Assembly (NCBI GenBank): GCA_030654075.1 | Contig: JAURYB010000005.1 | Span: 8,732 to 72,731 of the forward strand | Length of the DNA: 64,000 bases | Direction: 5' to 3' | Origin: Bacteroidales bacterium | GTDB lineage: Bacteria > Bacteroidota > Bacteroidia > Bacteroidales > UBA4417 | In this document: in pieces, positions 18,670 to 49,844 of the stretch | Numbering within the stretch: position 1 is the first letter of the stretch | Layout: the number at the start of each line of letters is the position of its first letter | Notes under the pieces: generated by a model | What the model was told of the DNA's origin: nothing | Databases searched by the model: none | The model's input: the letters and a program-made list of their open reading frames with translations, nothing else | Position numbers and translations under genes: made by a program

Positions 18670-19611
18670 TCATTTTTTATTCAAGCTCCATGTAATTGTC
18701 AGATCACCTTGATTGACGGACCCTGAAGACGAATCACTCCGAGTGCTGGTTCCGATGGCGGCATCCACACTCCAGCCACCTAATGGCATAGTTATCTCTG
18801 AGGAAAAACCGCCGCCGCCTTCCAAACTGCCGCTGCATGTGCCATAGGTTTTTACCATTCCCACACTAATCGATGTCTTACCTTCGAAAACAGAAATGCT
18901 CACATCCGTTTGATCGCTGCCTGAAGCAACAGTAGTTGAATTTCCTTCTGCTCCGGTAAGCTGTTCAGAATAGTTTACAGTGCATTGAGCCACATTATTA
19001 TTGACCTCGCACTGGACAGAAAGATCGGACTTGAGGCTGCCACCAGGTCTAGCCGGATCATCAGCATTCAGTAATTTTTCATATGTGTGTTGTTCAATTT
19101 TAATAGTTCCGGTCCATGTTTTTTCGCGGCAGAGCTGGCTATTGTATTGGTATAAATCATCAATAAGTTTTTTCGCGACTCTTTTAGCTGCATCAATTGC
19201 ATCGTCAATGGGCACACTTTCAACAGTCCGGGATATCACATTATTCGGCCCATTTTTCATAATAAATGCCGAGATTGTGGTTGTATTTTCAAGAACAGTG
19301 ACACTAAGACTAACGAGATAGTCGTATTTCATTGCTTCGGCAATGTTCAATAATTGATCCTTATCTTCTACTCCGAGAATTTGTTTTTGTTTTTCCCAAT
19401 CCAGTAGCACCATAGTACTGTATTGGCTTTCTGAACTGGCGCATGGGAATTTTTTTCTAAGCCCATTAAAAAACTCCGAATCAAGGAGGTTTAGGCAACC
19501 AGAATTTGCCTTGGTCTCCGGTGAAAGCATTACGTAGAATTTGGGATCTGCTGCATGCAGGTAGTCGGCCAATATCAGCAACAGGAAAAGAAGGGTTGTT
19601 TTGTTTTGCAT
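18670..19611 (-). CDS. Secreted protein, paralog family B (B0; shared N-terminal domain, divergent C-terminus)
   Basis: N-terminal ~165 aa align to B1-B4 (FYVMLSP..., KKFPCASS, WEKQKQILGVEDKDQLLNIAEAMKYDYLVSLSVTV). The C-terminus is a different Ser/Gly/Thr-rich beta-type region. Confidence 0.6.
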   Translation of the reverse strand: MQNKTTLLFLLLILADYLHAADPKFYVMLSPETKANSGCLNLLDSEFFNGLRKKFPCASSESQYSTMVLLDWEKQKQILGVEDKDQLLNIAEAMKYDYLVSLSVTVLENTTTISAFIMKNGPNNVISRTVESVPIDDAIDAAKRVAKKLIDDLYQYNSQLCREKTWTGTIKIEQHTYEKLLNADDPARPGGSLKSDLSVQCEVNNNVAQCTVNYSEQLTGAEGNSTTVASGSDQTDVSISVFEGKTSISVGMVKTYGTCSGSLEGGGGFSSEITMPLGGWSVDAAIGTSTRSDSSSGSVNQGDLTITWSLNKK

Positions 19612-23347: not shown

Positions 23348-23740
23348 CTATTTCTTTGCCGAAGTTGTAAAAGAAATCTCATTACCGTAAATGGTTTCGG
23401 TGCTGGTGGTGATAAACGACCTGATATACAATTTCATACCTGGAGTTAAGCCGGTTAACTGAACATTAAAACTTGGTCCCGGTGCTTTATCGGCTCCATA
23501 AACGGTGTTTTTGGTGGTAGGTCCGGGGCCTTTGCTCAGGCAGATTCCATGTTTGGTTATTGTAACTCCTGCCGCAGTAATTACATACCCGCTTTGGGCA
23601 GAAGTAGCTGTAATGTTTTTAACAGCAGTAGTTTTTACGGATGGAGTTTTTTGCGCATAAATGCCGGAAGAGAGCATTACGGTACTTATTGTTGCTATAA
23701 GTACAACGCATACAGAAATAAGAACTGACTTGTTTTTCAT
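23348..23740 (-). CDS. Small secreted single-domain (FN3-like) protein, paralog 1
   Basis: 130 aa with a signal peptide. The mature domain differs from the 25421 paralog at 2 residues. The pattern HGIC.SKGPGPT...F.V.LTGLTPG..LYIRSF is typical of FN3-like beta-sandwich modules. Confidence 0.65.
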   Translation of the reverse strand: MKNKSVLISVCVVLIATISTVMLSSGIYAQKTPSVKTTAVKNITATSAQSGYVITAAGVTITKHGICLSKGPGPTTKNTVYGADKAPGPSFNVQLTGLTPGMKLYIRSFITTSTETIYGNEISFTTSAKK

Positions 23741-25420: not shown

Positions 25421-25813
25421 CTATTTCTTCGCTAAGGTTGTAAAAGAAATTTCATTCCCATAAATAGTTTCGGTGCTGGTGGTGATAAATGACCTGATAT
25501 ATAATTTCATGCCCGGAGTTAAGCCGGTTAGCTGAACATTAAAGCTTGGTCCCGGTGCTTTATCGGCGCCATAAACAGTGTTTTTAGTGGTAGGACCAGG
25601 GCCTTTGCTCATGCATATTCCATGTTTTGTAATGGTAACTCCTGCTGCTGTAATTACATATCCGCTTTGAGCAGAAGTAGCTGTGATGTTTTTCACAGGA
25701 TTAGTTTTGACAGATGGTGCTTTTTGTGCATTAATGCCGGACGAGAGCATAACGATGCCAATTGTTGCGGTAAGTACAACGCATAGAGAAAAAAGGACTG
25801 ATTTGTTTTTCAT
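25421..25813 (-). CDS. Small secreted single-domain (FN3-like) protein, paralog 2
   Basis: Start set at ATG 25813 (MKNKSVLFSLCVVL...). Near-identical mature domain to 23348-23740. Confidence 0.65.
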   Translation of the reverse strand: MKNKSVLFSLCVVLTATIGIVMLSSGINAQKAPSVKTNPVKNITATSAQSGYVITAAGVTITKHGICMSKGPGPTTKNTVYGADKAPGPSFNVQLTGLTPGMKLYIRSFITTSTETIYGNEISFTTLAKK

Positions 25814-25895
25814 AACATAGTTGGTTAAAGGGTTAAAAATAAATCTGTTTTTACTGTCAATCAAAGTACTACTGTTATTTTATTGGATATTTTTT

Positions 25896-26213: not shown

Positions 26214-26693
26214 CTATTGTTTGATTATTTTGTATCCTGCATACGTTTTATTTGTAACATCTTTGATTAATACCCAATATATACCTGGGGATAAATGGCT
26301 TACATGAATCTCGGCTTTTAGTTCATCGGTTATTTTATTTTGAATCAATTTCCCAAACAAATCAGAAATTGATATATCATATTTCGATTCATTTTCAAAA
26401 CTAATTGTTAATAAATCTTCTGTCGGATTGGGAAATATACTTACACCTGCCAGTTTGGTGAGTTCTTCTGTTCCCACAGTATTAAACATATCTGAATTTA
26501 TAAACCCCTCAGAAATGCCAAAAGAGCCAGTAGTTTTTTCCTGAACAGCAACTTCTCCAATGGTATAAATCATTTTAGTAGTTCCGCTCTGGGTAGAAGT
26601 TCCTCCACTATCTATACTTGATTTTTTAATTCCCACCTGGCCAAACACGGTAAGACTACAAACCAAGGCTATAAAGGTTATAAAATTTCTCAT
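26214..26693 (-). CDS. Small T9SS C-terminal-sorting-domain protein
   Basis: 159 aa with a signal peptide. C-terminus SIFPNPTEDLLTISF...SISDLFGKLIQ...LSPGIYWVLIKD is Por-secretion-tail-like. Confidence 0.7.
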   Translation of the reverse strand: MRNFITFIALVCSLTVFGQVGIKKSSIDSGGTSTQSGTTKMIYTIGEVAVQEKTTGSFGISEGFINSDMFNTVGTEELTKLAGVSIFPNPTEDLLTISFENESKYDISISDLFGKLIQNKITDELKAEIHVSHLSPGIYWVLIKDVTNKTYAGYKIIKQ

Positions 26694-28396: not shown

Positions 28397-29053
28397 CTAT
28401 TTGACTGCCGCCATTTTTATATCAGCGGGTATTTCAAACTTATCAGCGGGAATTACCGGATTTTCTTCAAATTTCTCACCGATAAGTTTCATTTTCGTGG
28501 TTCCCATATCGATATCTGATTGAAGTGCCACTCCTTTGTAAACCAGGAAGGTGCCTTTCATCTTCATTTTGGTGTAGTCGATACTCATTTTTTCGCAGGT
28601 TTTGCCAAGGTATTCTTCCGTACCTTCTTTTTTAAGGTTCATGTCCTTGACCATTTGTTCCGAAAGGTTTTCAAAATCAATGTTTTGATTGCTTCCCTGA
28701 TACGAAGCAACTTTGGTTCCGGTTTTCTTTTCCATATCAAGGGTGTACATAAACCCATCTTTGGTAATGGTAACAGTATGGATTTTTACGCCCATCATAT
28801 CCATTTCCATATCCGTGGCTTCCTTTTTGCCATAATCGTCGAAAGTAAGAGTCTGTTTCATATCCATACCCATCATCTGGGTTTTGTACTCGACTATCCC
28901 CGATTTGATGGCATACCGGCCTTTTGGGGTTGCTGTTTCGGTTGCTGCCGGATTTTCAGCGGTAGAATTGGTTTCTGAAGTTTTGCTTTTACAGGAGAAA
29001 AGCAGCGTGGCTGTTGAAAAGATTGCCAGGGCAATTAGTTTATTTGATTTCAT
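28397..29053 (-). CDS. Hypothetical lipoprotein (Met/Lys-rich)
   Basis: Lipobox LLFSC; 218 aa. No family recognised. Confidence 0.55.
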   Translation of the reverse strand: MKSNKLIALAIFSTATLLFSCKSKTSETNSTAENPAATETATPKGRYAIKSGIVEYKTQMMGMDMKQTLTFDDYGKKEATDMEMDMMGVKIHTVTITKDGFMYTLDMEKKTGTKVASYQGSNQNIDFENLSEQMVKDMNLKKEGTEEYLGKTCEKMSIDYTKMKMKGTFLVYKGVALQSDIDMGTTKMKLIGEKFEENPVIPADKFEIPADIKMAAVK

Positions 29054-36914: not shown

Positions 36915-38039
36915 TTACTGTCGTGTAAGCGAGAAATTGATTTTTGCCGTTGCCTTCTCTTTTCCCTGCGACAGATCTTTGGTTTCATCCTGATTCAGCA
37001 CTTTGTCTTCAGCCGTTCCTTTGTAAGGCCCCAAAACAACTTTCAGAGGGACATCAATCTCGTTATTTCTGGGTTCTTCAGGTTCCTCATTTTTCCTGGC
37101 GGCACAGGGAGCATTGATTTTTTTATCGATAGTGGTTTTCATATTGCCTTTTTGCGAAGTGGCCTCAATTAAGATATTGTAAGTTCCGTCTTCCAAAAAC
37201 ACAATTTTTATACGGCAATCGGCTACTTTTTGGCCTTCTGAAACGCTTTCGTTTGACAAGCCACTGGCCTTTGCCTCAACATCCTTTTTTTCGTTGATCT
37301 GGGCAATTGTTTTTTGACCGTCGGGACAGATGTAGCAGGGATTGTTAATGGTTGTTTCAGTTTTTTCATTCATATCGTAGGTCACATTGCCATCACCTTT
37401 CCTAAGGCCGTTTTTGTTGAGTTTCCAGTTCAGATTCATTTTTGTTGTTATCCTGGTCTGGATTGCAATCATTCCGCCATCGCATGGAATTGAGCTGCTG
37501 GTTGTTTCTTCTTTTTCACTTTCAACTTCGATGGTGAGTTTACCTTCGTAAGCGCAGATTTCGTATTCTTTCAGTTGTTTTACAAGGTCTTTTGAAACTT
37601 TTTCAGCATTCTCAGATGCCTGGCCAATTGGTCCGTGTGCATCGGTGCGTGCAATAGTATTCGCCTTTTTTACGTCCATACAGAATGCTGAGAGGTAGAG
37701 CTGGTCACCAAGAACATCGGCTTTGAATTTAATCAGATAGTCGCTACCGATCGCCCCGGCAATATTCTGAAGTTGATTATCATCAATGGCACCTAGCAAC
37801 TGTCGCTTTCTTTCCCATCGCAGCATTTCGTATAGCGAACCCCTGTCAAGAATTTCAACACAGGGGAAGGCCTCCTTTAAATCATTAAACAATTTTGTTT
37901 CAAAGGCAATACAAATTGTTTTTGCATCAACCAAATTGCTTTTTGTCTCAGAAACAATAAATATTTTGGGGTTGGCCGCATTTACATTTCCAGCCAAAAT
38001 TCCGGAAATAAAAACGATGAGTAAAATGTATTGTTTCAT
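36915..38039 (-). CDS. Secreted protein, paralog family B (B3), module 3
   Basis: Start set at ATG 38039 (MKQYILLIVFISGILAGNVNA), giving an ATGA overlap with the C3 stop. Motifs ERKRQLLGAID, SDYLIKF, YEICAYEGK, CYICPDG, LGPYKGTAEDKVL. Confidence 0.7.
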   Translation of the reverse strand: MKQYILLIVFISGILAGNVNAANPKIFIVSETKSNLVDAKTICIAFETKLFNDLKEAFPCVEILDRGSLYEMLRWERKRQLLGAIDDNQLQNIAGAIGSDYLIKFKADVLGDQLYLSAFCMDVKKANTIARTDAHGPIGQASENAEKVSKDLVKQLKEYEICAYEGKLTIEVESEKEETTSSSIPCDGGMIAIQTRITTKMNLNWKLNKNGLRKGDGNVTYDMNEKTETTINNPCYICPDGQKTIAQINEKKDVEAKASGLSNESVSEGQKVADCRIKIVFLEDGTYNILIEATSQKGNMKTTIDKKINAPCAARKNEEPEEPRNNEIDVPLKVVLGPYKGTAEDKVLNQDETKDLSQGKEKATAKINFSLTRQ

Positions 38040-39016
38040 TGTTTTAGAATTATGCAATTTGGCAATGACTTTTTGATTTTATCTAATTCTACCTCAACTA
38101 TTTTTGTTTTTGCAACACCCAATGTATCCAGGCTGGTAAGTGTATTTATTACCGGGGTTATGGTTGAGATAGGATTGATGTCGAGGTACAGATTTTTCAG
38201 AGATGTGAGAGATCCGATTGCAAGTGGTAATTTTTCGATACTGTTGTTAAAAAGTCCTAGTTCGGTAAGTTTTTTGAAATTTACGATAGTCTCTGGAATT
38301 GATTTTACGTATTGTTTAAAATTGATAACATATAAAACTTCGAGTGGATAGTTTTTTGCCCTGTCGAATAAATCATTGAGATTAACTGGTGAACCATTTT
38401 TGCCGCCTACAATGATGAGGGTGCTTATGGATTTGTAGTTTTGCATCTGGTCAATAATTAGTTCGATAGTTTTCGTCGACATATCGAGGCATAAGGTTTT
38501 TGTTTCTTCCAGTGTAAGTTCGTTTGCTGCTGAACCAGTTTCATCTTCTTTAAATTCCGCTACAATTTCCTCCCGCAAAGGCTTGGCCAATAGAACCGGG
38601 GCGCTTTTCCCCGAAGCCCCTGCTTCCCAAAGTTGGGTGTACACATCTACCTTTTGTTTGCCCATTTCCATCTGAAGCTCGCTCATTTTATTGCCGTCGG
38701 AATTGCTGTTGCCTGATCCGTCCTGATTTTGACTTCCTGGTGATCCCTGACCGCTGGAGGAAGCTGAAGTTGCTGCAACAAGCTGGCCCATCAAAACCTT
38801 AATTTGTTCGTTGGCTTTTTTAGCTTCAGCGGGATTGTCCCAATTGGTCGTTTGGCGTATTTTAGCCATCTGCTGCCTGATTTCGGCAACTTTATTCTGA
38901 CTGGTATTTTGGCAGAACGCAGCATCTGAAATCAGGAAAAACATCGAGCACAAAACTATTTTCGATATGAAACATCGAAAGAGTGCTAAAATTCTTTTGT
39001 TCAGGGAGTTGTCCAT
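38036..39016 (-). CDS. Secreted leucine-rich-repeat protein, paralog family C (C3), module 3
   Basis: IRQTTNWDNPAEAKKANEQIK; Ser/Gly/Gln-rich linker; LRRs LTELGLFNNSIEKLPLAI..LKNLYLDINPIS. Ends KSLPNCIILKQ. Confidence 0.75.
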   Translation of the reverse strand: MDNSLNKRILALFRCFISKIVLCSMFFLISDAAFCQNTSQNKVAEIRQQMAKIRQTTNWDNPAEAKKANEQIKVLMGQLVAATSASSSGQGSPGSQNQDGSGNSNSDGNKMSELQMEMGKQKVDVYTQLWEAGASGKSAPVLLAKPLREEIVAEFKEDETGSAANELTLEETKTLCLDMSTKTIELIIDQMQNYKSISTLIIVGGKNGSPVNLNDLFDRAKNYPLEVLYVINFKQYVKSIPETIVNFKKLTELGLFNNSIEKLPLAIGSLTSLKNLYLDINPISTITPVINTLTSLDTLGVAKTKIVEVELDKIKKSLPNCIILKQ

Positions 39017-39021
39017 TTGTA

Positions 39022-39987
39022 TTATTTTAACACATAGTTAAAAGCTCCTGACAAACGAGACAAGTAATTCTTTATGTATTTAAAATATTCAATCTCAGGA
39101 CCGATGGGAGTATCAATTTTTATCGGCTGCAAATTGGCAACCATCCGGTTGAGGTCGGCAATGCGGATGTAATCGGGGTATGACGCTTTCAGGTCGGCAT
39201 ATTGCATGTTTAATACTTTCCAGTAAAGTGGTGTGTACTTTTCGCAGTATTTTTCTTTTTCTTTTTTTATGAGCGATGCAATAGAATCCATTTCATATCC
39301 CTGACCAACATCAACACCGGTCATCGCTGTAATTTTACTATTCCACACCCCGATTTTTTGAAGGGTCGCCATTCGCTCCGGATCAGTATCAATTTTAATA
39401 TATTCATTCTCAATATTGTTTCGGCGTTCATCTACCTGTGACTTTAAATTTTGTAGCTGCTGGGCTAATTCTCCAGGGTTCGAACCGGTTTTTTGTTGTT
39501 CACTTATCCCCTGGCTGGACTGGGCCATGGTATAACTTTCAGCGCCATATGCTTCGGCCCAGGCTTTTTTACCTTCTTCGCTCATGCCCTGCATATTTTT
39601 GATTTCACCAGTCGAAATATTGGTTTGCTGCATCATCATTTTATCGGCTAATGCAGCTTTGTCAGCTTCTGACATTTTTTTATTGCTTTTCATTTTCTGA
39701 ACTTCTTCATCCGATAGGCCATATTGTGAAGCCATTTGATTTATCGCATTTTCTTTAGCCGGATTCCCATCAACTTTGCTTTGGCTTTTCATTTTTTTTA
39801 TCTGATCGTTTATCTCATCTTTCAGGGTTTTTACCTGGGCAACAAACGTTTCCCTGGTTTCGGGTTTAATTTTGCACAATTCATCTGGAAGCGAAGGAAT
39901 ATTATCGACAAATTGCTGGGTCTGGAACTGGGCGTTGCAAACAAATGTTGTAAGCAACATGATAAGCAGTATAAGCTGTGTTTTCAT
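39022..39987 (-). CDS. Secreted Met-rich coiled-coil protein, paralog family D (D3), module 3
   Basis: Signal peptide MKTQLILLIMLLTTFVCNAQ; DKMMMQQTNISTGEIKNMQGMSEEGKKAWAEAY. Its stop lies 5 nt before the C3 start. Confidence 0.65.
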   Translation of the reverse strand: MKTQLILLIMLLTTFVCNAQFQTQQFVDNIPSLPDELCKIKPETRETFVAQVKTLKDEINDQIKKMKSQSKVDGNPAKENAINQMASQYGLSDEEVQKMKSNKKMSEADKAALADKMMMQQTNISTGEIKNMQGMSEEGKKAWAEAYGAESYTMAQSSQGISEQQKTGSNPGELAQQLQNLKSQVDERRNNIENEYIKIDTDPERMATLQKIGVWNSKITAMTGVDVGQGYEMDSIASLIKKEKEKYCEKYTPLYWKVLNMQYADLKASYPDYIRIADLNRMVANLQPIKIDTPIGPEIEYFKYIKNYLSRLSGAFNYVLK

Positions 39988-40051: not shown

Positions 40052-40636
40052 TTAGTCTTGCTCTACACCGTTGATAACGGTATGTTTTTTGCCGTTATTC
40101 TCGTACCAATACGATATGCTACGCCCTTCACTTTCTTCAGAAGTTACCCGCCCCTGCTTATCATATGAAATTGAAATAAGCAGTTTCCCCTTTTCAACTT
40201 TTGTTTCGTTCTGTCTTCTGCCATCTTCATAAAAAAGGTTTGTATATCCTGTATATTCCCAGGGTTCACCGGTCAGATAACTGTCTAGCTTAAGTGTGCC
40301 ATCTTCATAGTATTCGAGAGATCTGCCTTTTGGGATACCATTTTCATAATTGGTATTCGATCGTAACACCCCATTTTCAAAAAACGTTTTGTAATATCCA
40401 TGGGGTACACCATGAAAGAATTCCTGTTCAGTGGATAAAAATCCTTTTTCAGTATAAAACTTGTATATCCCATTAAGCTGTCCGTTTTCCATCATATATA
40501 CCTTACTCACTTTACCATCGGGATAATACTCTGTCTTCTTTCCGTTCAAAGGGTCTTCTTTACTGGTATTCTGAGCTAACAGGCTCGTTAATCCTATTGT
40601 AATCAGGATGATGATAACTAAAATGGCAGTTTTCAT
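40052..40636 (-). CDS. Secreted MORN-repeat-variant (YwqK-like) protein
   Basis: Signal peptide plus repeated Y(Y/F).(D/N)G.(L/V)......Y.NG...G units (EYYPDGKVSKVYMMENGQLNG, TFFENGVLRSNTNYENGIPKG, EYYEDGTLKL). Confidence 0.65.
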   Translation of the reverse strand: MKTAILVIIILITIGLTSLLAQNTSKEDPLNGKKTEYYPDGKVSKVYMMENGQLNGIYKFYTEKGFLSTEQEFFHGVPHGYYKTFFENGVLRSNTNYENGIPKGRSLEYYEDGTLKLDSYLTGEPWEYTGYTNLFYEDGRRQNETKVEKGKLLISISYDKQGRVTSEESEGRSISYWYENNGKKHTVINGVEQD

Positions 40637-40719
40637 TTCAGATTATTTAATGATGTTAAATGAAAAGAGCAGAAAAAGGGAAAGGCACCACTTGATTATG
40701 CCTGCTCACTTGATGCGTA

Positions 40720-42003
40720 TCAGAGTTTAATAAACTCCACCCTCCTGTTCATCGCTTTATTGGAAGGTGTATCATTAGGTGCAACCGGCTGGCTTTCGCC
40801 CATTCCATCGGTTATAAGGCGTTCGCCATTTACATTGAATGTTTTTACAAGCTCGCTTTTAACCGAAGCGGCCCGGCGTTTCGAGAGATCCAGGTTGGCA
40901 GCATCGGCACCATCGGCATCGGTATGTCCGACTATTTTCACTTTTACATCAGGTACCTCATTCAGGATTTTAGCAATGTCTTTCAGGGTTCCGTAAGATT
41001 CAGGCTTAACCACATCCTTATTTACATCGAAATAAATGCCGTAGGTTACAAGTTTGCCTTCGGTAAGCAGTTTGTTTCGGGTATCGGGCGAAGCTGTAGT
41101 AATTTTCACATTGGTGATATACGAACTGCAGGAAGCTCCCCTATATAGTTGAAATGCCAGCCGTGTAAATTTACTGTCCTCATACAGGTTGGTAGGCATA
41201 TCCAATACCTTTTCCCCCTGATGATAAATACGAACCCGCCGGTTCTGAACCCAGATAATTACGTGATTAACCTTCTCTTCTACAACAGGTTTTAATTGTG
41301 AGTTGCCGGTTATTTTGGAGCTCCCGGCTTTTATGCCTTGTGATTCCCAGCCAGTTTTTGCCACACTTATAATCAATCCGGTTTTACAGGCAAACGGATC
41401 GCTCATTTCCTTGAACCCGTTTTCGCCATAAATAGCCACGCCAACTGCATATCGTGGGGCTCCTTTTTTGGGCACAATATCGAATTCAAGAATAAAATTT
41501 TTCGGGAACTCAATCGGTTTCAGGAACCACCAGTTACCTTCAGTTGCATTCAGATTTAACCAGTTACCGGGGGCAACATTTAATGTATTGATCTCCCCTG
41601 ATTTATTGGTTGTCCAGAGTGCAGGGAAATCGCCCACAGCATCCTGGCTGAAATCTTCGTACAATAAAACTTTATCGCCAGGAACAAAATCATAATTTGA
41701 AAAGGATTGCAGTGACTGCTGATTCTGCTTTCCTTCAGTTTTACTGCCGGGTGCTGTAGTGGTTGTTCCGGTATTTTTCTGATCTGGCTTTTGTGTTGCA
41801 GGAGTATTAGATTTTTTAAAATTAGGATTAAGGCTATCCTCAATTACATCAAGCCCTTTATCAATACCCCGGTCAATTTTACGGTTAACCCTGTTAACAA
41901 CTTTGTTTTCAATACGTTGCGGAACATTTATGATCTGCGCCGAAACCTCAATCCACAAACTTAAAAAAAAGAATGTCAGGACTGTTACAACAAGTGCTTT
42001 CAT
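40720..42003 (-). CDS. OmpA-family protein (novel N-terminal region + OmpA/MotB C-terminal peptidoglycan-binding domain), paralog 1
   Basis: C-terminus YFDVNKDVVKPESYGTLKDIAKIL...VKIVGHTDADGADAANLDLSKRRAASV...NRRVEFIKL. N-terminal amphipathic IINVPQRIENKVVNRVNRKIDRGIDKGLD. Confidence 0.8.
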   Translation of the reverse strand: MKALVVTVLTFFFLSLWIEVSAQIINVPQRIENKVVNRVNRKIDRGIDKGLDVIEDSLNPNFKKSNTPATQKPDQKNTGTTTTAPGSKTEGKQNQQSLQSFSNYDFVPGDKVLLYEDFSQDAVGDFPALWTTNKSGEINTLNVAPGNWLNLNATEGNWWFLKPIEFPKNFILEFDIVPKKGAPRYAVGVAIYGENGFKEMSDPFACKTGLIISVAKTGWESQGIKAGSSKITGNSQLKPVVEEKVNHVIIWVQNRRVRIYHQGEKVLDMPTNLYEDSKFTRLAFQLYRGASCSSYITNVKITTASPDTRNKLLTEGKLVTYGIYFDVNKDVVKPESYGTLKDIAKILNEVPDVKVKIVGHTDADGADAANLDLSKRRAASVKSELVKTFNVNGERLITDGMGESQPVAPNDTPSNKAMNRRVEFIKL

Positions 42004-42296
42004 GATCCTAAAGATTAATGAGTTAGAAATTGAATTGATATGTTTGGTATGAACAAATTTACATCAGGTCATTTCGTATCACATCCCTGTTTTAAGGGGT
42101 TTTGCAGCAGGACTTGTTATATATCTTAGTGATGTAAATATAGGGAAATTTCGCTGAAAATATTCTTTTCTCCTGGAAAAAATTCTTTTTTAATATGTCG
42201 TCCTGAAACCGGATAGTAAGAGTTTAAATAGTAAAACAGGTTGAAGATAATGAATTACTTTGATTTTGAAAATGGCATCTATTTGTGATATTTATT

Positions 42297-43349
42297 TTAC
42301 TTTACATCCAGCAATTCTCTTAAATCACTTCCTTTCATCCCCTGAATAAATTCCCAAACCCTGTGGGCATTAATTTCTCCCCATTCGGGATAATCAGCAT
42401 GACCTTCCATGGTAATGGTGATCAATTGTACACTTGTTCGCGGAAGTGCCGGATCAAAATAATTCGGATTAATTTTGTAAAGTGCCTTTGTGGAGTCCTC
42501 TTCTACGGTGCATATTCCGGTAAGGGGTCTTTGTGAATTTCCATTGATGTAAGCAGGCATCATCATCATCTCGGGAGGAATAGCATCTATTTCACTTTTT
42601 AAGGCATCTATCACCATTTGAGGAATTAAGCCCTCCTTCAGTGATGCATTATAATAGATCATCATCCTGGCAATGTATTCTTTGTTTGTAACAGGGAACC
42701 ATAGAGGGCGATCGTTGCGGGCAACAACAATCCGGTTCTCGTAATACCAATTATAAAGAAACACACCACTGCCAATATCCATTAATTCTTTAGGCAGACA
42801 AAAAATCTCTTTGAATTGATTAAGGGCTTTCTTGTCATCCAGTTTATCAAAATTCATGGCTGTTTCGTAAACAGCAGATTCATCATTGGTTCTCAGTTGA
42901 ATATAGGATACCTCCGTACAGGCATTATCAATCTTTCCATTATTATGGATAAGGTTGCAAAATGGGACATAGATTTCAGTCTTCACTTTTTCGGTTGCTG
43001 CCAGTGCATGATCATAATGATTGTAAACAGCTCTGGCTTGCGCATTCAGGTTCACCCCAAGCGGATTCTGAGCAATGGGTTGCTGATGCAGATAGCTAAC
43101 CAATTTTTCGGTAGTGGCATGGTATTTCTCCAATTCAGTCGCAGTCATTTTGTAATAGCGCGCGCCAAACCACTCCGCCGACTCGTTATTATTGGTATAA
43201 ATCCACTTACCGGGATAGGTCGCTAAGTCGCTGTTGTCCTGCGAAAAAGAAAGGAACGAAATACTTGAGATGAGAAGGAGTATAAATATTCGCCTTGGGA
43301 GATTGAATCGGGATTTTTTTTTCAAAACGTCAGAGTTTATTTTTACCAT
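42297..43349 (-). CDS. Secreted protein, paralog family A (A7, divergent)
   Basis: VARNDRPLWFPVT, KINPNYFDPALPRTSVQ, C-terminal LLDVK. 14 nt downstream of B4. Confidence 0.65.
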   Translation of the reverse strand: MVKINSDVLKKKSRFNLPRRIFILLLISSISFLSFSQDNSDLATYPGKWIYTNNNESAEWFGARYYKMTATELEKYHATTEKLVSYLHQQPIAQNPLGVNLNAQARAVYNHYDHALAATEKVKTEIYVPFCNLIHNNGKIDNACTEVSYIQLRTNDESAVYETAMNFDKLDDKKALNQFKEIFCLPKELMDIGSGVFLYNWYYENRIVVARNDRPLWFPVTNKEYIARMMIYYNASLKEGLIPQMVIDALKSEIDAIPPEMMMMPAYINGNSQRPLTGICTVEEDSTKALYKINPNYFDPALPRTSVQLITITMEGHADYPEWGEINAHRVWEFIQGMKGSDLRELLDVK

Positions 43350-43363
43350 ATTCTGGTTTTTTC

Positions 43364-44560
43364 CTATCTGCTAAACGAGAAATTAACTTTGCTGGTGTAG
43401 GTTGTTTGGCCGCCATCAATTTTATTGTTATCGGTCTCAGTTTTCGTGTCCTTCAAGGTTTTATCAGTGGGTTTTCCTTTAAACGGCCCCCAGGTACTTT
43501 TAACTGATACAATATATCCATAGGTTATTTTTTCATCGGGCTCAGGATCTTTGCGGCATTCGGTAATATTGGTTACTTTTCTCGATTTCACATATTCGCC
43601 TTTCTGGGATACGGCTTTTACCACTACCATATAAGTGCCCTGAATGGTATCAAATTCAATACTGACTTCAGCAGGGAACTTCTTTGATGTATTTGAACCT
43701 TCTGGCAACGGAGCTAATCCATCCACTTTAAATTCCTCCCTGGTAACCACCGTATAATCAGAACTGGTATAATTTGTCATATCAATTCCAGTTACATCTT
43801 TTCCTTCGTATGTCCAACAATTCACACAGCCCGATTTAAACTCGCGGTTCATTTTCTCATCAACACCACTGGCATGCATTGATCCGGTTGCCTGAATCCG
43901 ACCTTTTTTTTCCAGAACCACTTCTTCAAGATAACTGTTGCTTTTCTTTATGGTTCCTCTGAAATATCCCGAATTGTCCTTTCCGCAACGGCTTCCGGTT
44001 TCGTGAATCTCGTCACTGGTTCTTTCTGTGGACATGCTAATCGTCCCTAAGTAAGGGCATATTCCTCTGGCTAACAGATCCCTCGCCAAATCCTGTGCAT
44101 ATTTTCGCATTGCCTGAATAAAATGATCTTTGTCGGTTGTATTAATCCCCCTGGTAGCCACCTTTGAATTTCTTGTGATTGAGGTTGAACCCGTCAGATA
44201 ATAATCATCTCCAATCCTATACCCGCCCAAAGAAATAAGATAATCGCATCCCATTGCTCCGGCAATCATCGAAAGATTACCTTCTATGTCATTGGTTAAA
44301 ATAGCTTTTGTACGATCAAGTATCATCATTTGCTTTATACCTTGATAGGTCATAAAATCAGCACAGGTAATCTGTTGCTTTAATTCATCCTGCACCTGAT
44401 CTTCAAAAAGTCCTGATATATCGTCGGCAGAAAAACTCCCTAAACCATCTTTTGCTGAACCTATAATCAGTATTTTAGGTCTTACAATCTCGGGTAATTT
44501 TTGGCCAAATGAAACAATACCAAACCAGCACAAAAAAATAATTAACAATGAAGATCTCAT
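43364..44560 (-). CDS. Secreted protein, paralog family B (B4), module 4
   Basis: Signal peptide; CDYLISLGG, GICPYLG, CVNCWTY, ITECRKD, WGPFKGKPTDKTL. Its ATG overlaps the C4 stop (ATGA). Confidence 0.65.
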   Translation of the reverse strand: MRSSLLIIFLCWFGIVSFGQKLPEIVRPKILIIGSAKDGLGSFSADDISGLFEDQVQDELKQQITCADFMTYQGIKQMMILDRTKAILTNDIEGNLSMIAGAMGCDYLISLGGYRIGDDYYLTGSTSITRNSKVATRGINTTDKDHFIQAMRKYAQDLARDLLARGICPYLGTISMSTERTSDEIHETGSRCGKDNSGYFRGTIKKSNSYLEEVVLEKKGRIQATGSMHASGVDEKMNREFKSGCVNCWTYEGKDVTGIDMTNYTSSDYTVVTREEFKVDGLAPLPEGSNTSKKFPAEVSIEFDTIQGTYMVVVKAVSQKGEYVKSRKVTNITECRKDPEPDEKITYGYIVSVKSTWGPFKGKPTDKTLKDTKTETDNNKIDGGQTTYTSKVNFSFSR

Positions 44561-45387
44561 TTTGTCAAAATGTTACAGTCAGGAACTAATTTCTGAATCC
44601 GTGATTTCTCACTTTCGCTGATGCCGGTTTTGGCAATGCCGAGCAGTTTCAAGTTCTTTAACCGGCCAATGTCATCAGGTAATCTTTCTATCGGATTCAG
44701 ATCCACATATAACTCTTCCAAACCGGTCAGATTTTGAATGGAACCGGGCAATGTGCTGATTTGATTCCCGTATAATGCAAGTTTTTTCAATTTGGTTAAG
44801 TTTCCAATACTTTCAGGAACAGAGCGGGTTCCGGAATAATTCCGCAACAGGTAAAGCTCTGTAATCGGTTTATCGGCAAGCTTGAAAAAAAGTGAATCTA
44901 AATCTATTTCTGCACCTGATTTGGTTCCCTTGATAAAAAGCACTTGCAGATTTGGGAATTTGTTCAGATCAGCCAGTGATAAACCCGGTTCCGGATTCGC
45001 CAAATCAATCGCCAGAAAAGTGGTTTCTTCATAAAACTCATCAGAAATTTCATTCACGTCCTCATCCATTTCAAAATCGCGCAGAATTTCGTTTGTGAGT
45101 TGCTCAGCCATTTCAGCACCTATAACAATGGGTGCCTGTAGCGTCGTATCCAATGGAAATTCATTGGTTGCAATACCTGCATCTTTATCGATCTGTTGAA
45201 AAAGATTACCGAGTTTTATGCGGGCTTGCCTGGCTTCCTCAGGGTCATCCCAATTGGTGCTTTTCATTAATCTCTCAGTCTCTTCAGCAGATCTTTGCTG
45301 CTGAGGTGTTGGTTTTTCTTCTTCTTGCTGCGCATAACAAGCAAGTCCGCAAAACACTATCAGGAAAAGAAGAATCAGGTTTCTCAT
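44557..45387 (-). CDS. Secreted leucine-rich-repeat protein, paralog family C (C4), module 4
   Basis: Start set at ATG 45387 (MRNLILLFLIVFCGLACYAQ). LMKSTNWDDPEEARQARIK; LRRs LKKLALYGNQISTLPGSI..LEELYVDLNPIERLPDDI. Ends KLVPDCNILTK. Confidence 0.75.
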   Translation of the reverse strand: MRNLILLFLIVFCGLACYAQQEEEKPTPQQQRSAEETERLMKSTNWDDPEEARQARIKLGNLFQQIDKDAGIATNEFPLDTTLQAPIVIGAEMAEQLTNEILRDFEMDEDVNEISDEFYEETTFLAIDLANPEPGLSLADLNKFPNLQVLFIKGTKSGAEIDLDSLFFKLADKPITELYLLRNYSGTRSVPESIGNLTKLKKLALYGNQISTLPGSIQNLTGLEELYVDLNPIERLPDDIGRLKNLKLLGIAKTGISESEKSRIQKLVPDCNILTK

Positions 45388-45663
45388 ACAAAAATGGTTG
45401 AGTGGATATACCAAAATGTGGCGCACTATTTAAAAATCAACAAGGAAAGCCTGACCCATTTATTGAACTGATCGTCGGATTGGGTAATTTTTTTTGGTAA
45501 TAAAATCTAATTTCTGTTAACGAAATATTAGCTGAAAATCAGAACAATACAAGCGATTATTACTATTGATGTATTGCCTGGAGGGCAGAATAATGCCTGG
45601 CATATTAAATTTCATAATTTCCGGCAGGATAAAAGTGCCTGCCGGAAACAATGAACAAAAAAT

Positions 45664-46980
45664 CTATAATTTTATAAACTCCACCCTGCGGTTCATCGCT
45701 TTATTGGAAGGAGTATCATTTGGAGATACAGGTTTTGTTTCGCCCAGGCCATCCGATTCCAATCGTGAGGCATCAATACCGAAGTTTTTAACCAGTTCGG
45801 CTTTAACCGAAGCACCGCGGCGTTTCGACAAATCAAGATTTGCAGCATCGGCACCATCGCTGTCGGTATGGCCAACAATTTTAACCCGAACGGTCGGGTT
45901 TTCCTTTAACACATCGGCTATTCCTTTCAGGGTTCCGTATGATTCGGGTTTTACCACATCTTTATTTACATCAAAATAAATACCGTAACTCACCAGTTTG
46001 CCTTCGGTAATCAGTTTGCTGCGCATATCGGGCATACCTGCTGCTATCCTGAAATTTGTAATCATCGGGGCAGATTCTCCCCACAATTCGAAACGCATCT
46101 GGTTGCATATCATCCCAGGTTTGAACACCTTTGGCAAGTCAAAAATCTTTACCTGGTCCTGGTACACCCTGAGCCTTGTTTTCTGCACCCAGAAGGATAA
46201 CCGGTATCTTTTCCCGGCTTCCATAGTTGCATTTTCTTTTTCTCCACTTATGGTGTAGCCTTCTACATCATATGCACTGTAAGTAGCCCGGTAACCGAAG
46301 CTCATTTTAATTCCCCCATTCAAACCCGGAACAGCTCCTCCTTCGAACAGGTCTTTCGGATCTTGAGCACTGTACAAATAAAAGCCATATTCAAAGCTTA
46401 CAACATCTTCATTCAACACATAAGGAATTACATCAAACTCTATGGTATAATTTTCGGGCAGCTTAATACCTTCTTCCAGGGCCACGCACCCTTCACCAAT
46501 CAATTTAAACCAGTTGCCTGGAAAAATATTATTAGTTACAACTTCGCCCGATGCCGTTGTATTCCAGTTTGGTGGAAAATCACCAACGGCTGTTTCCATA
46601 AAATCATCGAAGTACATTACCTTTTCGCCGGGGATGAAGTCGAATTTGGAATAGGTCTGCATACTTTGTTTTTCCTGTGGAACAGCAGTAACTGCAGTAG
46701 ATCCGGCTGCTTTCACGGCAGCTTCTCCGCCTGAATTTTCCGCCTCGGTTTGTTCTACAGGTGCCTTCTCACTCTTATTTTTATTTTTTTTCTTATTCTT
46801 CCCGCTGGCTTCATCTTCAACGGCATCAAGTCCCTTGTCGATGCCATTATCAATTTTGTTATTAACACGGTTGATTACTTTGTTTTCAACCCGGTTTCCA
46901 ATGTTGATAATTTGTGCTGTTACGAACAAACCGCTCAAAACAAAAGAAGCCAGAAATACCAGTCTCATGTAAATTTTCAT
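45664..46980 (-). CDS. OmpA-family protein, paralog 2
   Basis: Same architecture as 40720-42003: IINIGNRVENKVINRVNNKIDNGIDKGLD, a Lys/Asn-rich linker, a middle beta region, and an OmpA C-terminal domain ending NRRVEFIKL. Confidence 0.8.
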   Translation of the reverse strand: MKIYMRLVFLASFVLSGLFVTAQIINIGNRVENKVINRVNNKIDNGIDKGLDAVEDEASGKNKKKNKNKSEKAPVEQTEAENSGGEAAVKAAGSTAVTAVPQEKQSMQTYSKFDFIPGEKVMYFDDFMETAVGDFPPNWNTTASGEVVTNNIFPGNWFKLIGEGCVALEEGIKLPENYTIEFDVIPYVLNEDVVSFEYGFYLYSAQDPKDLFEGGAVPGLNGGIKMSFGYRATYSAYDVEGYTISGEKENATMEAGKRYRLSFWVQKTRLRVYQDQVKIFDLPKVFKPGMICNQMRFELWGESAPMITNFRIAAGMPDMRSKLITEGKLVSYGIYFDVNKDVVKPESYGTLKGIADVLKENPTVRVKIVGHTDSDGADAANLDLSKRRGASVKAELVKNFGIDASRLESDGLGETKPVSPNDTPSNKAMNRRVEFIKL

Positions 46981-47119: not shown

Positions 47120-49063
47120 ATGATTTTGATAGACCGGGCTGAATTTTTTTGGTTTTCTCTGGGATTAACACTGGCAGTAGTTTTGTCGACAAACAAGATG
47201 AATGCCCAGAATGTGGATTCGATCGGCATTTCAATTGATCGCATGGTAAATGAAAAAACAAACAAAACACGTAAACTTACATCCAACGCTGTATCTTACT
47301 ATGCTGATACTTTAAATATCAGCAAATATTTATCCACGGCACGAAGTTTTCAGACCGAAAACTATGATTCTTTGCTTTTCTACACTCAAAAAGCCTTGAA
47401 ACTATCATTTAAAATCAATGATCTGCCTGGTATCTCAAGATCAGTACAGATACTCGGACGCTATTTTATGATGAAAGAGGATTATCAGAATGCAGTAAAA
47501 TGTTTCATTAAAAGCCTCTCCATTGAAGAAAAACTAAATAATTCTGCCAGAATTGCTGACCTGAATGATGAACTGGGCAGCGTTTATTATTTTCAGGAAA
47601 TATTCGGGAAAGCACTTACTTATCATACTGCAGCCCTGGTTGTTTATGAAAAGAATCACGATACCACGAACATGGCTAAAGTATATAGCCATTTGGGAAA
47701 TCTGCACCTTTCGCGTGAATATTGTGAGCAAAGAACAACGGAGCAAAAAAAAGCTGACTTTACACTAGCTATTCAATACTTTGAAAAAACAGTACAGCTA
47801 TGTACAAAAACAGGATACAAATCTTTGATTATCAATAGCTATGTGAATATTGCCGCGACATATAACAAACTGGACAAACCTGAAAAAGCCCTTGTGTATC
47901 TAAACCAGGCTGTAGATTATTACCGCAAAACAAAGAATATGAGCAGGTTGGCCGGTTCTTTACACACACTTGGAATTACATATTACAAAGCGAAACAATA
48001 TATCCTGTCTGTAAAAGCCCTGGAGGAATCCGAAAAGCTTTCGGTTGACAATAAATATACTGAAGGCATTCAATATCTCTATGAAGCAATGGCTCAAACC
48101 TACGAAGCTTCACATGATTATAAAAATGCTTATGCTTATTATATCAAATACATGACTATCAGGGATTCATTAGTAACAGCTGATAAATCGAAACAACTAT
48201 TTGAACTTGAAACCAGGTACCAGACTGAGAAGAAGGAGAAAGAAATAGTAAAACTCACATCCGAAAAGCGTGAAAAGAATATGTTGCTTTTTGCCTTGTC
48301 AGGATTAATTTTTCTGTTGGCAGTATCCGGTTATTTTTTCGTTAAAAACATAAGGAACAAAAAGTTAATAGCGGAACAAACCCTTGAAATCAAGGAGCAA
48401 TACATACAGGACCTGGAAAAAGAGCGGCTGCTTGTTGCCACAAAATCAGTTTTAAAAGGAGAGGAATCCGAACGTTCGCGCATGGCCCGCGACCTTCACG
48501 ACGGATTAGGGGGCCTGCTTTCAGGAGTTAAAATAAATCTGTCATCTATGAAAGGGAATTCGATAATTACCAGCGAAAATGCCCAGGCATTTGATCACGC
48601 CATTAAACTGCTCGACACTTCCATCAGCGAATTGCGACGCGTGGCACACAACCTGATGCCCGAAACCCTTAACCATTATGGACTTAAAACGGCACTGAAT
48701 GACTTTATAGGCGAAATGAGCAAGAATCCGTCGACAGAGCTCACGTTTAGCTTTTTCGGGGCTGATATCCGTTTCGAATCACAACTTGAACTTACGGCCT
48801 TCCGCATAGCCCAGGAACTGGTAAACAATTCTCTGAAACACTCAGGTGCTGCAAAAATCGACCTTCAGCTTATTGCTGATATCGACCGGATTTGCATACA
48901 GGTTGTTGATAATGGCAAAGGATTTGACACTAAGGGCAGATCAGGGGATGGGAAAGGCCTGGTGAGTATCCGCGACCGGGTTACTGCCAACAACGGCAGA
49001 TTTGAAATAGAAAGTATTCCTGGCGAAGGAACCGAAGCCACAGTCGAATTTTTATTATCTTAG
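47120..49063 (+). CDS. Sensor histidine kinase (extracytoplasmic TPR sensor region, HisKA_3 + HATPase_c)
   Basis: N-terminal hydrophobic segment, about 350 aa of TPR-like repeats, and a second TM (LLFALSGLIFLLAVSGYFFV). H-box ERSRMARDLHDGLGGLLSG. ATPase motifs ELVNNSLKHSGA, VVDNGKGF, GKGLVSIRDRV. Confidence 0.85.
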   Translation: MILIDRAEFFWFSLGLTLAVVLSTNKMNAQNVDSIGISIDRMVNEKTNKTRKLTSNAVSYYADTLNISKYLSTARSFQTENYDSLLFYTQKALKLSFKINDLPGISRSVQILGRYFMMKEDYQNAVKCFIKSLSIEEKLNNSARIADLNDELGSVYYFQEIFGKALTYHTAALVVYEKNHDTTNMAKVYSHLGNLHLSREYCEQRTTEQKKADFTLAIQYFEKTVQLCTKTGYKSLIINSYVNIAATYNKLDKPEKALVYLNQAVDYYRKTKNMSRLAGSLHTLGITYYKAKQYILSVKALEESEKLSVDNKYTEGIQYLYEAMAQTYEASHDYKNAYAYYIKYMTIRDSLVTADKSKQLFELETRYQTEKKEKEIVKLTSEKREKNMLLFALSGLIFLLAVSGYFFVKNIRNKKLIAEQTLEIKEQYIQDLEKERLLVATKSVLKGEESERSRMARDLHDGLGGLLSGVKINLSSMKGNSIITSENAQAFDHAIKLLDTSISELRRVAHNLMPETLNHYGLKTALNDFIGEMSKNPSTELTFSFFGADIRFESQLELTAFRIAQELVNNSLKHSGAAKIDLQLIADIDRICIQVVDNGKGFDTKGRSGDGKGLVSIRDRVTANNGRFEIESIPGEGTEATVEFLLS

Positions 49064-49087
49064 CAGCACTATTTAGTAACTTAGGCT

Positions 49088-49142
49088 GAGGTTAAGATAG
49101 AGGTTAAGTAATCTCCGCTCAATCTTAACCTTTGCCTTAACC
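49088..49142. other. GGTTAAG double hairpin between kinase and regulator genes
   Basis: GAGGTTAAGATAGAGGTTAAG pairs with CTTAACCTTTGCCTTAACC (two 7-bp stems). Lies in the 154-nt kinase-regulator spacer. Confidence 0.45.
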
Positions 49143-49217
49143 TTATTATACTTCATAAGGGAGTTATTCTTTTAGGACCCAAACCGATCCTTATTATGGT
49201 TCTATTCCGCTGCTTCT

Positions 49218-49844
49218 ATGCAAAAAACTCTTATTGTTGAAGATCACCCTATTGTAAGCGACAGCCTCACAAACCTGATCAATACATCAGATCTTGAGCT
49301 TGAATGCCACCATGTAACAAATGCGCATGATGGATTAGCGTGGCTCAACGGCAACAAAGCCGGAATCATTCTTCTGGATATAAACCTGCCCGATATGAGC
49401 GGTATTGAGTTTTGCCGGATTGCAAAGTCGCGTTATGCCGGTTTAAAAATCCTTGCCATTACTTCCATTGAGCAACGCCATGTGGTGGATCAGATGCTGG
49501 CAGCAGGGGCCAATGGTTTTATTCTGAAAAGTTCAGATACCAGCGAAATACTCGAAGCAATCGGGCTGATTTTAAGTGGCAAGCAGTACATAAGCAAAAG
49601 CGTGGCAGAATTGCTGAATGGGAAACTACCAACCAACAGCACCCTTCCGGTACTTACCCGGCGTGAGGTTGAAGTTCTGAAACTTATTGCCAACGGCCTT
49701 ACCAACCAGGAAATCGCCGAAAAACTTTTTATCAGCACCTGGACTGTGGATAGCCACAGGAAAAATCTTTTATTAAAATTCAATGCAAAAAATACCGCGA
49801 TTTTGGTGAAGACAGCAGTAACGAGTGGGATAATAAGTTTTTAG
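49218..49844 (+). CDS. LuxR/NarL-family response regulator
   Basis: Receiver domain (IILLDINLPDMSG). C-terminal HTH LTRREVEVLKLIANGLTNQEIAEKLFISTWTVDSHRKNL. Confidence 0.9.
   Translation: MQKTLIVEDHPIVSDSLTNLINTSDLELECHHVTNAHDGLAWLNGNKAGIILLDINLPDMSGIEFCRIAKSRYAGLKILAITSIEQRHVVDQMLAAGANGFILKSSDTSEILEAIGLILSGKQYISKSVAELLNGKLPTNSTLPVLTRREVEVLKLIANGLTNQEIAEKLFISTWTVDSHRKNLLLKFNAKNTAILVKTAVTSGIISF

Follow-up and report, generated by a model that had tools for sequence, protein, structure and literature searches.

OmpA_C-domain proteins of undescribed architecture at the head of an uncharacterised gene array in Bacteroidota

Two paralogous genes for OmpA-like proteins, OmpA1 (O1) and OmpA2 (O2), were examined in a 64,000-nucleotide stretch of a Bacteroidales genome (assembly GCA_030654075.1, contig JAURYB010000005.1, positions 8,732 to 72,731 of the forward strand), referred to here as the window. 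Their products represent an OmpA_C wall anchor whose architecture has not been described before, and the gene array at the head of which they stand, composed of protein families A, B, C and D and a MORN protein, is likewise uncharacterised. Full-text literature searches returned no paper on this architecture or on the gene cluster, and the characterised proteins that come nearest are generic OmpA_C proteins and, among the Bacteroidota, PorE of the T9SS (type IX secretion system). The reading that we favour, with a confidence slightly above even, is that the OmpA-like proteins form a scaffold in the periplasm, anchored to peptidoglycan, on which variable interaction modules are held. The C-terminal domain would anchor the protein to peptidoglycan; the type-specific lectin-like domain and, where present, an amphipathic helix would bind partners or glycans; and C-B heterodimers, D, A and the MORN protein would assemble on it at a fixed layer of the periplasm.

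The genes between 46980 and 40052 lie on the minus strand, all six in the order described by the first-pass annotation of this DNA: OmpA2 (45664-46980, 438 aa, with a type-2 lectin-like core), C4 (listed as the open reading frame 44557-45426), B4 (43364-44560, 398 aa), A7 (42297-43349, 350 aa, secreted), OmpA1 (40720-42003, 427 aa, with a type-1 core) and a secreted protein with a borderline MORN_2 match (40052-40636, 194 aa), which is a conserved accessory gene of the array. The ATGA overlap of the C4 stop and B4 start and the gap of exactly 14 nucleotides (nt) between B4 and A7, both recorded in that annotation, are present as well. The true start of C4 is likely the ATG at 45387, giving 276 aa, and not the GTG at 45426, since the former agrees with the called orthologues in L084 and L089 (L-numbers denote loci from other genomes; L084-L089 and L091 were centred on B, the other loci on an OmpA-like gene). 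An all-against-all BLASTP of the window's proteins, from which paralogy was read, yielded seven A, four full B, four C and three D proteins and one OmpA-like pair. The similarities greatly exceed what chance would give: OmpA1 and OmpA2 are 46% identical (E 9e-123), C4 matches C1-3 at E 2e-33 to 8e-41, B4 matches B1-3 at E 6e-18 to 1e-23, and A7, the seventh A-family member, matches the other six copies at E 2e-6 to 3e-28. Among the window proteins no D-family homologue was found by BLASTP between 42297 and 46980, so that module 4 lacks a D gene, as had been noted. Directly downstream of OmpA1 and the MORN gene, on the same strand, lies a canonical module, D3-C3-B3 (36915-39987; D3 39022-39987, C3 38036-39016, B3 36915-38057), with a D3-C3 gap of 5 nt and an overlap of C3 and B3; the OmpA1 unit thus contains a D gene. 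D is the all-helical member of the canonical module D-C-B-A.

The OmpA-like proteins share a common layout. OmpA1 comprises a signal peptide (residues 1-22), an amphipathic helix (23-58), a disordered linker (59-97), a concanavalin A (ConA)-like beta-sandwich (about 98-305) and an OmpA_C domain (324-420), and OmpA2 a signal peptide (1-22), an amphipathic helix (about 23-58), a K/N/E-rich linker, a ConA-like beta-sandwich and an OmpA_C domain (335-431), so that the shared architecture of helix, low-complexity linker, beta domain and OmpA_C proposed earlier is borne out. Pfam recognised in the pair the C-terminal OmpA domain only, PF00691, with 80.2 bits in OmpA1 and 76.8 bits in OmpA2 against a cut-off of 27.2 and with the full model (1-98) covered; the NCBIfam matches were confined to the same domain and were all under their cut-offs. 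The motif TD..G...LS..RRA is kept as GHTDADGADAANLDLSKRRAASV in OmpA1 and GHTDSDGADAANLDLSKRRGASV in OmpA2, and D362, R376 and R377 are invariant across 77 aligned OmpA-like sequences. In structures of Acinetobacter baumannii OmpA, the Asp and Arg of the TD...LS..RRA motif contact the diaminopimelic acid of the peptide stem. The canonical motif and the established knowledge of OmpA_C domains together suggest that the OmpA-like proteins bind peptidoglycan through this C-terminal domain.

An AlphaFold2 model of OmpA1 was built on 77 homologues and searched with Foldseek against the Protein Data Bank (PDB). It contains the signal peptide, a helix at 27-58, a disordered linker, a beta-sandwich with a predicted local distance difference test (pLDDT) score of 70-90, and the OmpA_C domain. 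The latter matched OprF (5u1h) and the OmpA_C domains of A. baumannii, Capnocytophaga and Klebsiella at 32-41% identity, and is 40% identical to 3td5, the A. baumannii OmpA-like domain with bound peptidoglycan pentapeptide. The middle domain resembles the carbohydrate-binding module CBM66 (4b1m; Foldseek probability 1.00, E 8e-9, TMt 0.64-0.67). Matches with E 8e-9 to 1e-6 and TMt 0.51-0.67 were to CBM66, 7elv, 2a71, 2duq and 3u1x; further ones were to a legume-lectin domain, Emp46/47p, VIP36, galectin-8N, the N-subdomain of botulinum toxin Hc and the DUF1080 protein BDI_1869. The middle domain is thus modelled as a concanavalin-A-like (lectin/CBM66-like) jelly-roll beta-sandwich. The earlier suggestion of a jelly-roll or LamG-like middle region proved right at the level of the fold, which is of the ConA/lectin type, with no match to a sequence family: Pfam gave none in the proteins of the window with a threshold as loose as E 10, PF06439 reached E 0.029 in one of six homologues only, and a profile search of the PDB returned nothing. 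The N-terminal helix is amphipathic, and its hydrophobic moment, taken at 95-100 degrees per residue, is 0.57-0.67. When all six frames of the window were scanned for the helix motif D.G[IV].KG[LIV][DNE], which lies within the signature NR.N...D.GI.KGLD, it turned up in no genes other than the OmpA-like pair.

The signal peptides end in EVSA/QIIN and FVTA/QIIN (cleavage at the slash), with no Cys at the cleavage site. Both proteins are exported by the Sec system and, as neither a lipobox nor an eight-stranded beta-barrel nor a T9SS C-terminal domain was found in the pair by sequence, AlphaFold2 model or Pfam, are presumably soluble in the periplasm. The array proteins likewise have signal peptides with Gln at +1 and, by sequence and Pfam, no T9SS C-terminal domain.

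Comparison with known OmpA_C proteins (OmpA/OprF, Pal, YiaD, MotB) placed the likeness in the C-terminal 100-110 residues (80 bits, TMt 0.76-0.81, 40% identity to the C-domains of both OprF and A. baumannii OmpA). OmpA and OprF have an N-terminal eight-stranded barrel that the window proteins lack, and the NCBIfam porin OmpA model matches residues 322-418 only; Pal and YiaD have a lipobox, again missing here, and the match to the Pal model (65 bits) stays under its cut-off of 125; MotB has a transmembrane helix and plug, which are also absent. In place of these elements, the N-terminal part of the window proteins carries the amphipathic helix, the disordered linker and the lectin-fold beta-sandwich. 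PorE (PG1058) of the T9SS is a Bacteroidota periplasmic multidomain protein whose OmpA_C-like C-terminus binds peptidoglycan and thereby anchors a bigger machine of the envelope (PMC7192894, PMC5053529, PMC12773672). The NCBIfam model T9SS_PorE matches the OmpA_C part only, at 55-58 bits against a cut-off of 600, whereas PorE is a lipoprotein with tetratricopeptide repeats (TPR), a WD40 beta-propeller and a CRD, and domain content and neighbourhood differ; no T9SS core genes lie near the window's OmpA-like genes. The ConA-like fold of the middle domain is common to CBM66, L-type lectins, galectins and DUF1080 (3-keto-disaccharide hydrolase), with an identity of only 9-18%, and literature searches found no fusion of this fold to OmpA_C.

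O1 and O2 represent two ancient types that differ chiefly in the lectin-like core; the window copies share 69% identity in the helix, 23% in the core and 76% in OmpA_C. The type-1 core is 83-94% identical across families, with 83% between Lentimicrobiaceae and Prolixibacteraceae, and a third core type is present in L084, L088 and L089. In L084 (12570-13871) and L089 (9514-10095), the OmpA gene that follows C4-B4 has the type-3 core, in comparison with the window gene at 40720-42003. In the L084 protein, the type-3 core (25% identity) is set between signal peptide, helix and linker on one side and OmpA_C on the other, all of them OmpA1-like (54-84%), and this conserved frame around a divergent core indicates a domain swap by recombination. 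Module duplication and swapping of the lectin core would diversify the binding partners of the scaffold.

Judged by sequence searches, the OmpA-like family is large, strongly conserved and far more widespread than C-B. It comprises 3648 clusters at 90% identity (E up to 0.001), whereas the B family, clustered at 50% identity, accounts for only 447 of 1.84 billion representatives, and the OmpA-like family gave at least 574 matches in species-representative genomes of Bacteroidales, Chitinophagales and Ignavibacteria. These extend over Lentimicrobiaceae, Prolixibacteraceae, Paludibacteraceae, Rikenellaceae, Dysgonomonadaceae and Odoribacteraceae and further to Chitinophagaceae, Ignavibacteriaceae and Melioribacteraceae. 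Identity to OmpA1 is 63-93% among the 120 homologues listed, and OmpA2 orthologues are 73-86% identical in L001, L002, L005, L018, L084 and L085.

The position of the OmpA-like gene at the head of the array was found repeatedly. In all seven B-retrieved loci with upstream DNA, an OmpA-like gene heads the same-strand array, and the OmpA-like genes are thus not unlinked to C and B, the observation that the first-pass annotation had named as fatal to its view; an eighth contig, P0135, is too short at its 5' end. Six of the seven have the same genes as flanks and are therefore not independent. The linkage also occurs with unrelated flanks in Prolixibacteraceae, Chitinophagaceae and Ignavibacteriaceae, and arrays headed by an OmpA-like gene were found in L001, L002, L005, L007, L013, L018, L024, L033, L084-L089 and L091. 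In eight genomes, only 26-111 nt separate D from the OmpA1-type gene. About 19 of 24 C/B pairs overlap by 4 nt; C and B are usually translationally coupled, and the overlap is what suggests C-B heterodimers. A, B, C and D were sought with profiles which, when made from the window paralogues alone, under-detected A, C and D elsewhere; three iterations raised the hits for A from 17 to 25, for C from 14 to 17 and for D from 23 to 27, B stayed at 9, and sensitivity is still limited in these fast-evolving families.

The module composition of other genomes, a comparison proposed earlier, revealed C4-B4-A7 as a relocated three-gene unit. In L001, from a Lentimicrobium metagenome-assembled genome with the same adjoining two-component system, the order is O2-O1-D-C-B-A...A, and in L002, from Aquipluma nitroreducens with wholly different flanks, O1-O2-DUF3108-like-D-C-B-MORN-A. 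L005 reads O2-O1-D-C-B... and L085 O2-C4-B4-O1-D-C-B..., with downstream genes as in L005, so that at one site C4-B4 is absent in the former and present in the latter between O2 and O1. L084 is arranged as in the window, L089 as O2-C4-B4-O, and L018 as O2-O1-C4'-B4' with a 60-nt gap after O1. L091 reads O-DUF3108-like-TPR-D-C-B-A6 (70%)-C4 (71%)-B4 (49%)-A7 (62%)-C-B-AsmA, and the P0135 contig D-C-B-A-C4-B4-.... From these arrangements, OmpA-like genes and D normally coexist, and C4-B4-A7 is a conserved, rarer and intrinsically D-less unit, apart from the canonical D-C-B-A. Its location between two OmpA genes is lineage-specific; elsewhere it follows OmpA1 or D-C-B-A. Every locus in which a C4/B4-type pair was seen also has an O2-like core (six of six contexts), and O2 occurs without C4-B4 in L001, L002 and L005. 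This leaves room for a type-specific partnering of O2 with C4-B4, in a sample that is small and phylogenetically clustered.

The intergenic regions are consistent with separate expression of the OmpA-like genes and module 4. D-C gaps in the window are 2, 5 and 56 nt and C-B overlaps 4 or 1 nt, while the gaps between units are about 240-280 nt (OmpA2-C4), 293 (A7-OmpA1), 262 (B3-D2) and 390 (B2-D1). Directly after the OmpA2 stop codon, a stem-loop with a 12-bp core was found at 45611-45655 on the minus strand (folding free energy -24.5 kcal/mol, z -6.2; none of 200 shuffles folded equally well). Its palindrome is kept in L084 and L085, and it is terminator-like, with a clear U-tract absent. The region upstream of OmpA1 (42004-42160, minus) is conserved in relatives and is a candidate promoter and regulator-binding site: L005, L084 and L085 share about 140-160 nt of it at 83-92% identity, the conservation is limited to short blocks in L001 and L018, and it does not depend on whether the upstream gene is OmpA2, B4 or A7. 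Within it lie TAAATTTG (42054-42061), which we take to resemble the -7 box of Bacteroidota, the invariant 22-mer AAAACCCCTTAAAACAGGGATG (42082-42103), which includes a small CCC/GGG hairpin and occurs nowhere else in the window, and CTATATTTACATCA (42130-42143). These tight gaps within modules, the large gaps between units, the hairpin and the OmpA1 upstream region point to three likely transcription units, [OmpA2], [C4-B4-A7] and [OmpA1-MORN-D3-C3-B3]. No insertion footprint, sought as sequence common to both intergenic regions flanking module 4, was found, and the OmpA1-proximal 140 nt are the only flanking intergenic DNA conserved with module-less genomes. Rfam gave one sub-threshold chance match only on the intergenic regions, and a sigma-70 promoter scan, which is unsuited to Bacteroidota promoters, gave 19 sites versus 18.6 expected from shuffles.

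Among the module proteins, C4 is secreted and has a helical N-terminal part and C-terminal leucine-rich repeats (LRR), matched at residues 151-270 by LRR_14 (46.8 bits, cut-off 40), LRR_4 (29.9, cut-off 27) and LRR_8 (29.2, cut-off 27); its orthologues in L091 and L089 are 71-75% identical. A7 has no Pfam, NCBIfam or PDB match; its orthologue in L091, 62% identical, comes right after the C4-B4 orthologues, and it is also present in L084. For D, no peptidoglycan-binding domain and no Pfam or NCBIfam match above threshold were found, and a D profile gave coiled-coil noise only. Neither the B, A and D proteins nor the middle domain of the OmpA-like pair gave anything usable in searches of Pfam (E up to 10) and NCBIfam or in PDB profile searches. 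The MORN protein reaches 29.4 bits with MORN_2 against a cut-off of 29.6, shows a partial match to the LIC20035 adhesin family (E 1.4e-6, far under that family's cut-off), and has orthologues in Aquipluma L002 (46% identical), L004, L007 and L084.

B4, a secreted protein which has no sequence match in Pfam, NCBIfam or the PDB, was modelled by AlphaFold2 (pLDDT 82.2, predicted TM-score 0.70) as an alpha/beta domain (residues 29-164), four strands of 20-30 residues (171-280) and a C-terminal beta-sandwich (297-397), and six cysteines are invariant in alignments of the B family. Foldseek matched the N-terminal domain to the N-domain of TolB (E 5e-6), the C-domain of LpoB, FlgT, the Vibrio LPHT ring, PelC and GNA1162. 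Over the whole chain, TM to these matches is 0.22-0.24 with a root-mean-square deviation above 23 A, so that the likeness to TolB, LpoB, FlgT and PelC holds at the domain level only. Among the systems concerned (TolB-Pal, LpoB, FlgT/H-ring, PelC, CsgG-type), the N-terminal domain of B4 has the fold of TolB-N, LpoB-C, FlgT-M and PelC, and the B4 gene is accompanied by one for an OmpA_C protein, in the way that TolB is paired with Pal and FlgT with MotY, which is a functional analogy only. TolB has a six-bladed beta-propeller that binds Pal, whereas B4 has the long four-stranded sheet and the beta-sandwich with conserved cysteines, and no TolQRA or flagellar genes lie near the array. A CsgG-like transmembrane hairpin or barrel formed by the long strands was rejected on the ground that residues 165-280 are highly polar; barrel and MACPF matches in Foldseek had a probability of 0.06-0.28, and the pore idea was dropped. 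Elsewhere in the window, a 313-aa protein at 18670-19611 (minus) is a homologue of the B N-terminal domain; its first approximately 160 residues are 40% identical to B1, and no BLASTP match connects its C-terminal part with the remainder of the B proteins.

A two-component system (47120-49844, plus strand) lies divergently next to OmpA2 and was identified by Pfam. The sensor kinase (47120-49063, plus) has a TPR domain between two hydrophobic segments, followed by HisKA_3 and HATPase_c, and the response regulator (49218-49844, plus) is of the LuxR/GerE type. The placement of the repeats between two hydrophobic segments, the second near residues 387-410, makes a periplasmic TPR domain probable, and such a domain could detect a ligand, protein or peptide, that comes from the array. 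A TPR/HisKA_3 kinase and LuxR-type pair is found divergently upstream in 15 of 62 species loci and in all Lentimicrobiaceae-like loci, and an AraC-type regulator precedes the OmpA-like gene in 13 of the 62. In the scaffold model, the adjoining TPR-sensor/LuxR system would probably control expression.

Several observations weigh against such a scaffold. Genes were sought within about 10 kb downstream of the OmpA-like gene in 59 loci of other species, each with 5 kb or more of DNA on that side. Of these, 24 have A, B, C, D or MORN genes, nine have C and five have B, and 35 show no A, B, C or D with profiles of limited sensitivity; the OmpA-like protein must thus have a role that does not need the modules. 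OmpA1 has its own upstream region and is itself far better conserved than the modules, which fits mere neighbourhood too. The OmpA1 helix and linker are of low confidence in the AlphaFold2 model (pLDDT below 50 at residues 19-127), and the O2 orthologues in L001 (8572-9675) and Aquipluma L002 (11304-12422) have neither the helix nor the long linker, so that the signal peptide nearly abuts the lectin-like domain. The helix is therefore not a universal docking element and is optional in the type-2 lineage; a degenerate helix was seen in L014. The loci without modules, 59% of those surveyed, leave substantial weight to the explanation that the OmpA-like proteins are independent housekeeping wall binders and that a recombination hotspot next door has taken up A, B, C and D as cargo without any functional link to them, which we nonetheless regard as unlikely. 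It would fit the divergence of conservation (63-93% identity for OmpA1 among the 120 listed, other families included, versus 20-50% for the module proteins), the separate upstream region of OmpA1 and the variation in island size between the same flanks, which enclose about 11 kb in L086 and L087 and about 36 kb in the window. It does not explain why the linkage persists in Aquipluma L002, where an RND efflux pump and FtsX lie upstream and there is no two-component system, and in Chitinophagaceae L013 and Ignavibacteriaceae L033, why the modules are invariably on the same strand and downstream of the OmpA-like gene, or why the OmpA1-D gaps are so short; and where A-D are absent, other small secreted families (c5, the DUF3108-like c6 and c16) recur after the OmpA-like gene.

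The first-pass annotation had proposed that in module 4 an OmpA-like protein replaces D, and that the C-B pair is tethered to the wall through either D or an OmpA-like partner. C4/B4-type pairs do lack an upstream D in seven of seven contexts (window, L084, L085, L089, L018, L091, P0135), they directly follow an OmpA-like gene in five of the seven, with just 60 nt between them in L018, and their confinement to loci with an O2-like core would suit such a replacement. The canonical arrays of L001, L002 and L005, however, have OmpA-like genes together with D; O2 orthologues are found in these loci without C4-B4; in L091 and P0135, C4-B4(-A7) follows the A of a D-C-B-A module with no OmpA gene adjoining; D has no peptidoglycan-binding domain and no other match above threshold; OmpA2 is separated from C4 by the long gap and the strong hairpin, versus 2-56 nt at D-C junctions; and OmpA1 has the conserved 140 nt upstream as a region of its own. 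The annotation's reading of module 4 thus holds in part only, for the architecture and the linkage; the replacement of D is improbable and not worth carrying forward. Still less probable is that the array is a conflict system of periplasmic immunity proteins or decoys against interbacterial toxins or phage, with LRR, MORN and lectin-like domains as variable recognition elements. Tandem diversified paralogous modules, lectin-core swapping, the presence in one island of LRR, MORN and a protein that combines RHS repeats with a T9SS C-terminal domain, and an island size that varies strongly among close relatives would be expected of it, but no toxin, nuclease or NTPase domain was found, the lectin-like core is strongly conserved within its type, which is not an arms-race pattern, and module proteins of 280-400 aa in fixed order with translational coupling are unlike immunity-gene arrays. 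PADLOC matched the OmpA/MotB domains to ZorB only, generically (E 1e-9 to 1e-11), gave none for C4, B4, A7 and MORN and a marginal BrxC match for D3 (E 0.0076), and on this negative result a defence system was rejected.

The scaffold reading could be extended, at a level that we consider speculative and improbable, to a Bacteroidota-wide periplasmic recognition apparatus, in which wall-anchored lectin-like receptors and arrays of LRR/TolB-N-like heterodimers would report to the TPR kinase and so make up a modular system for sensing and response at the wall. It would employ at least three exchangeable core types to capture envelope or foreign ligands, which is just as doubtful, and in an equally remote variant B might control the wall binding of the OmpA-like protein, as in a mobilisable tether of the TolB-Pal kind.

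Further features of the island were recorded. It is flanked by rubrerythrin and Mfd genes on one side and by the two-component system and a fructose-1,6-bisphosphatase gene on the other, and in the window it occupies about 36 kb (11036-46980) with two OmpA-like genes, four C-B pairs, three D and seven A genes. Between the same flanking genes, L086 and L087 have about 11 kb with one OmpA-like gene and one D-C-B-A module, and this difference marks the site as an expansion hotspot. T9SS C-terminal sorting domains were found in 12048-13490 (minus), which also has RHS repeats, and in 26214-26693 (minus), among A copies in the same-strand island. The iterated C-family profile detected a 699-aa TPR protein (20883-22982, minus), 49% identical in L091; counterparts of about 650-730 aa are present in L010, L013, L018, L029, L047 and L088, and the TPR protein often comes after D and before A. 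A c5 gene (28397-29053, minus, 218 aa) and c33 genes of about 130-150 aa (23348-23740 and 25421-25864, both minus) lie in the window as well; c5 and c33, both families of small secreted proteins, recur downstream of OmpA-like genes in many genomes, module-free ones included.

In conclusion, no characterised member of the OmpA-like family could be found, three quarters of the protein are covered by no Pfam model, and the B, A and D families that accompany it match no Pfam or NCBIfam family above threshold. The wall-binding head genes and the frequent dedicated sensor kinase provide concrete, testable entry points, for which Aquipluma nitroreducens is a cultured carrier with a complete genome. 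The OmpA-like protein is a candidate for a general envelope component of the Bacteroidota, which may link the wall to a target recognised by a lectin fold.

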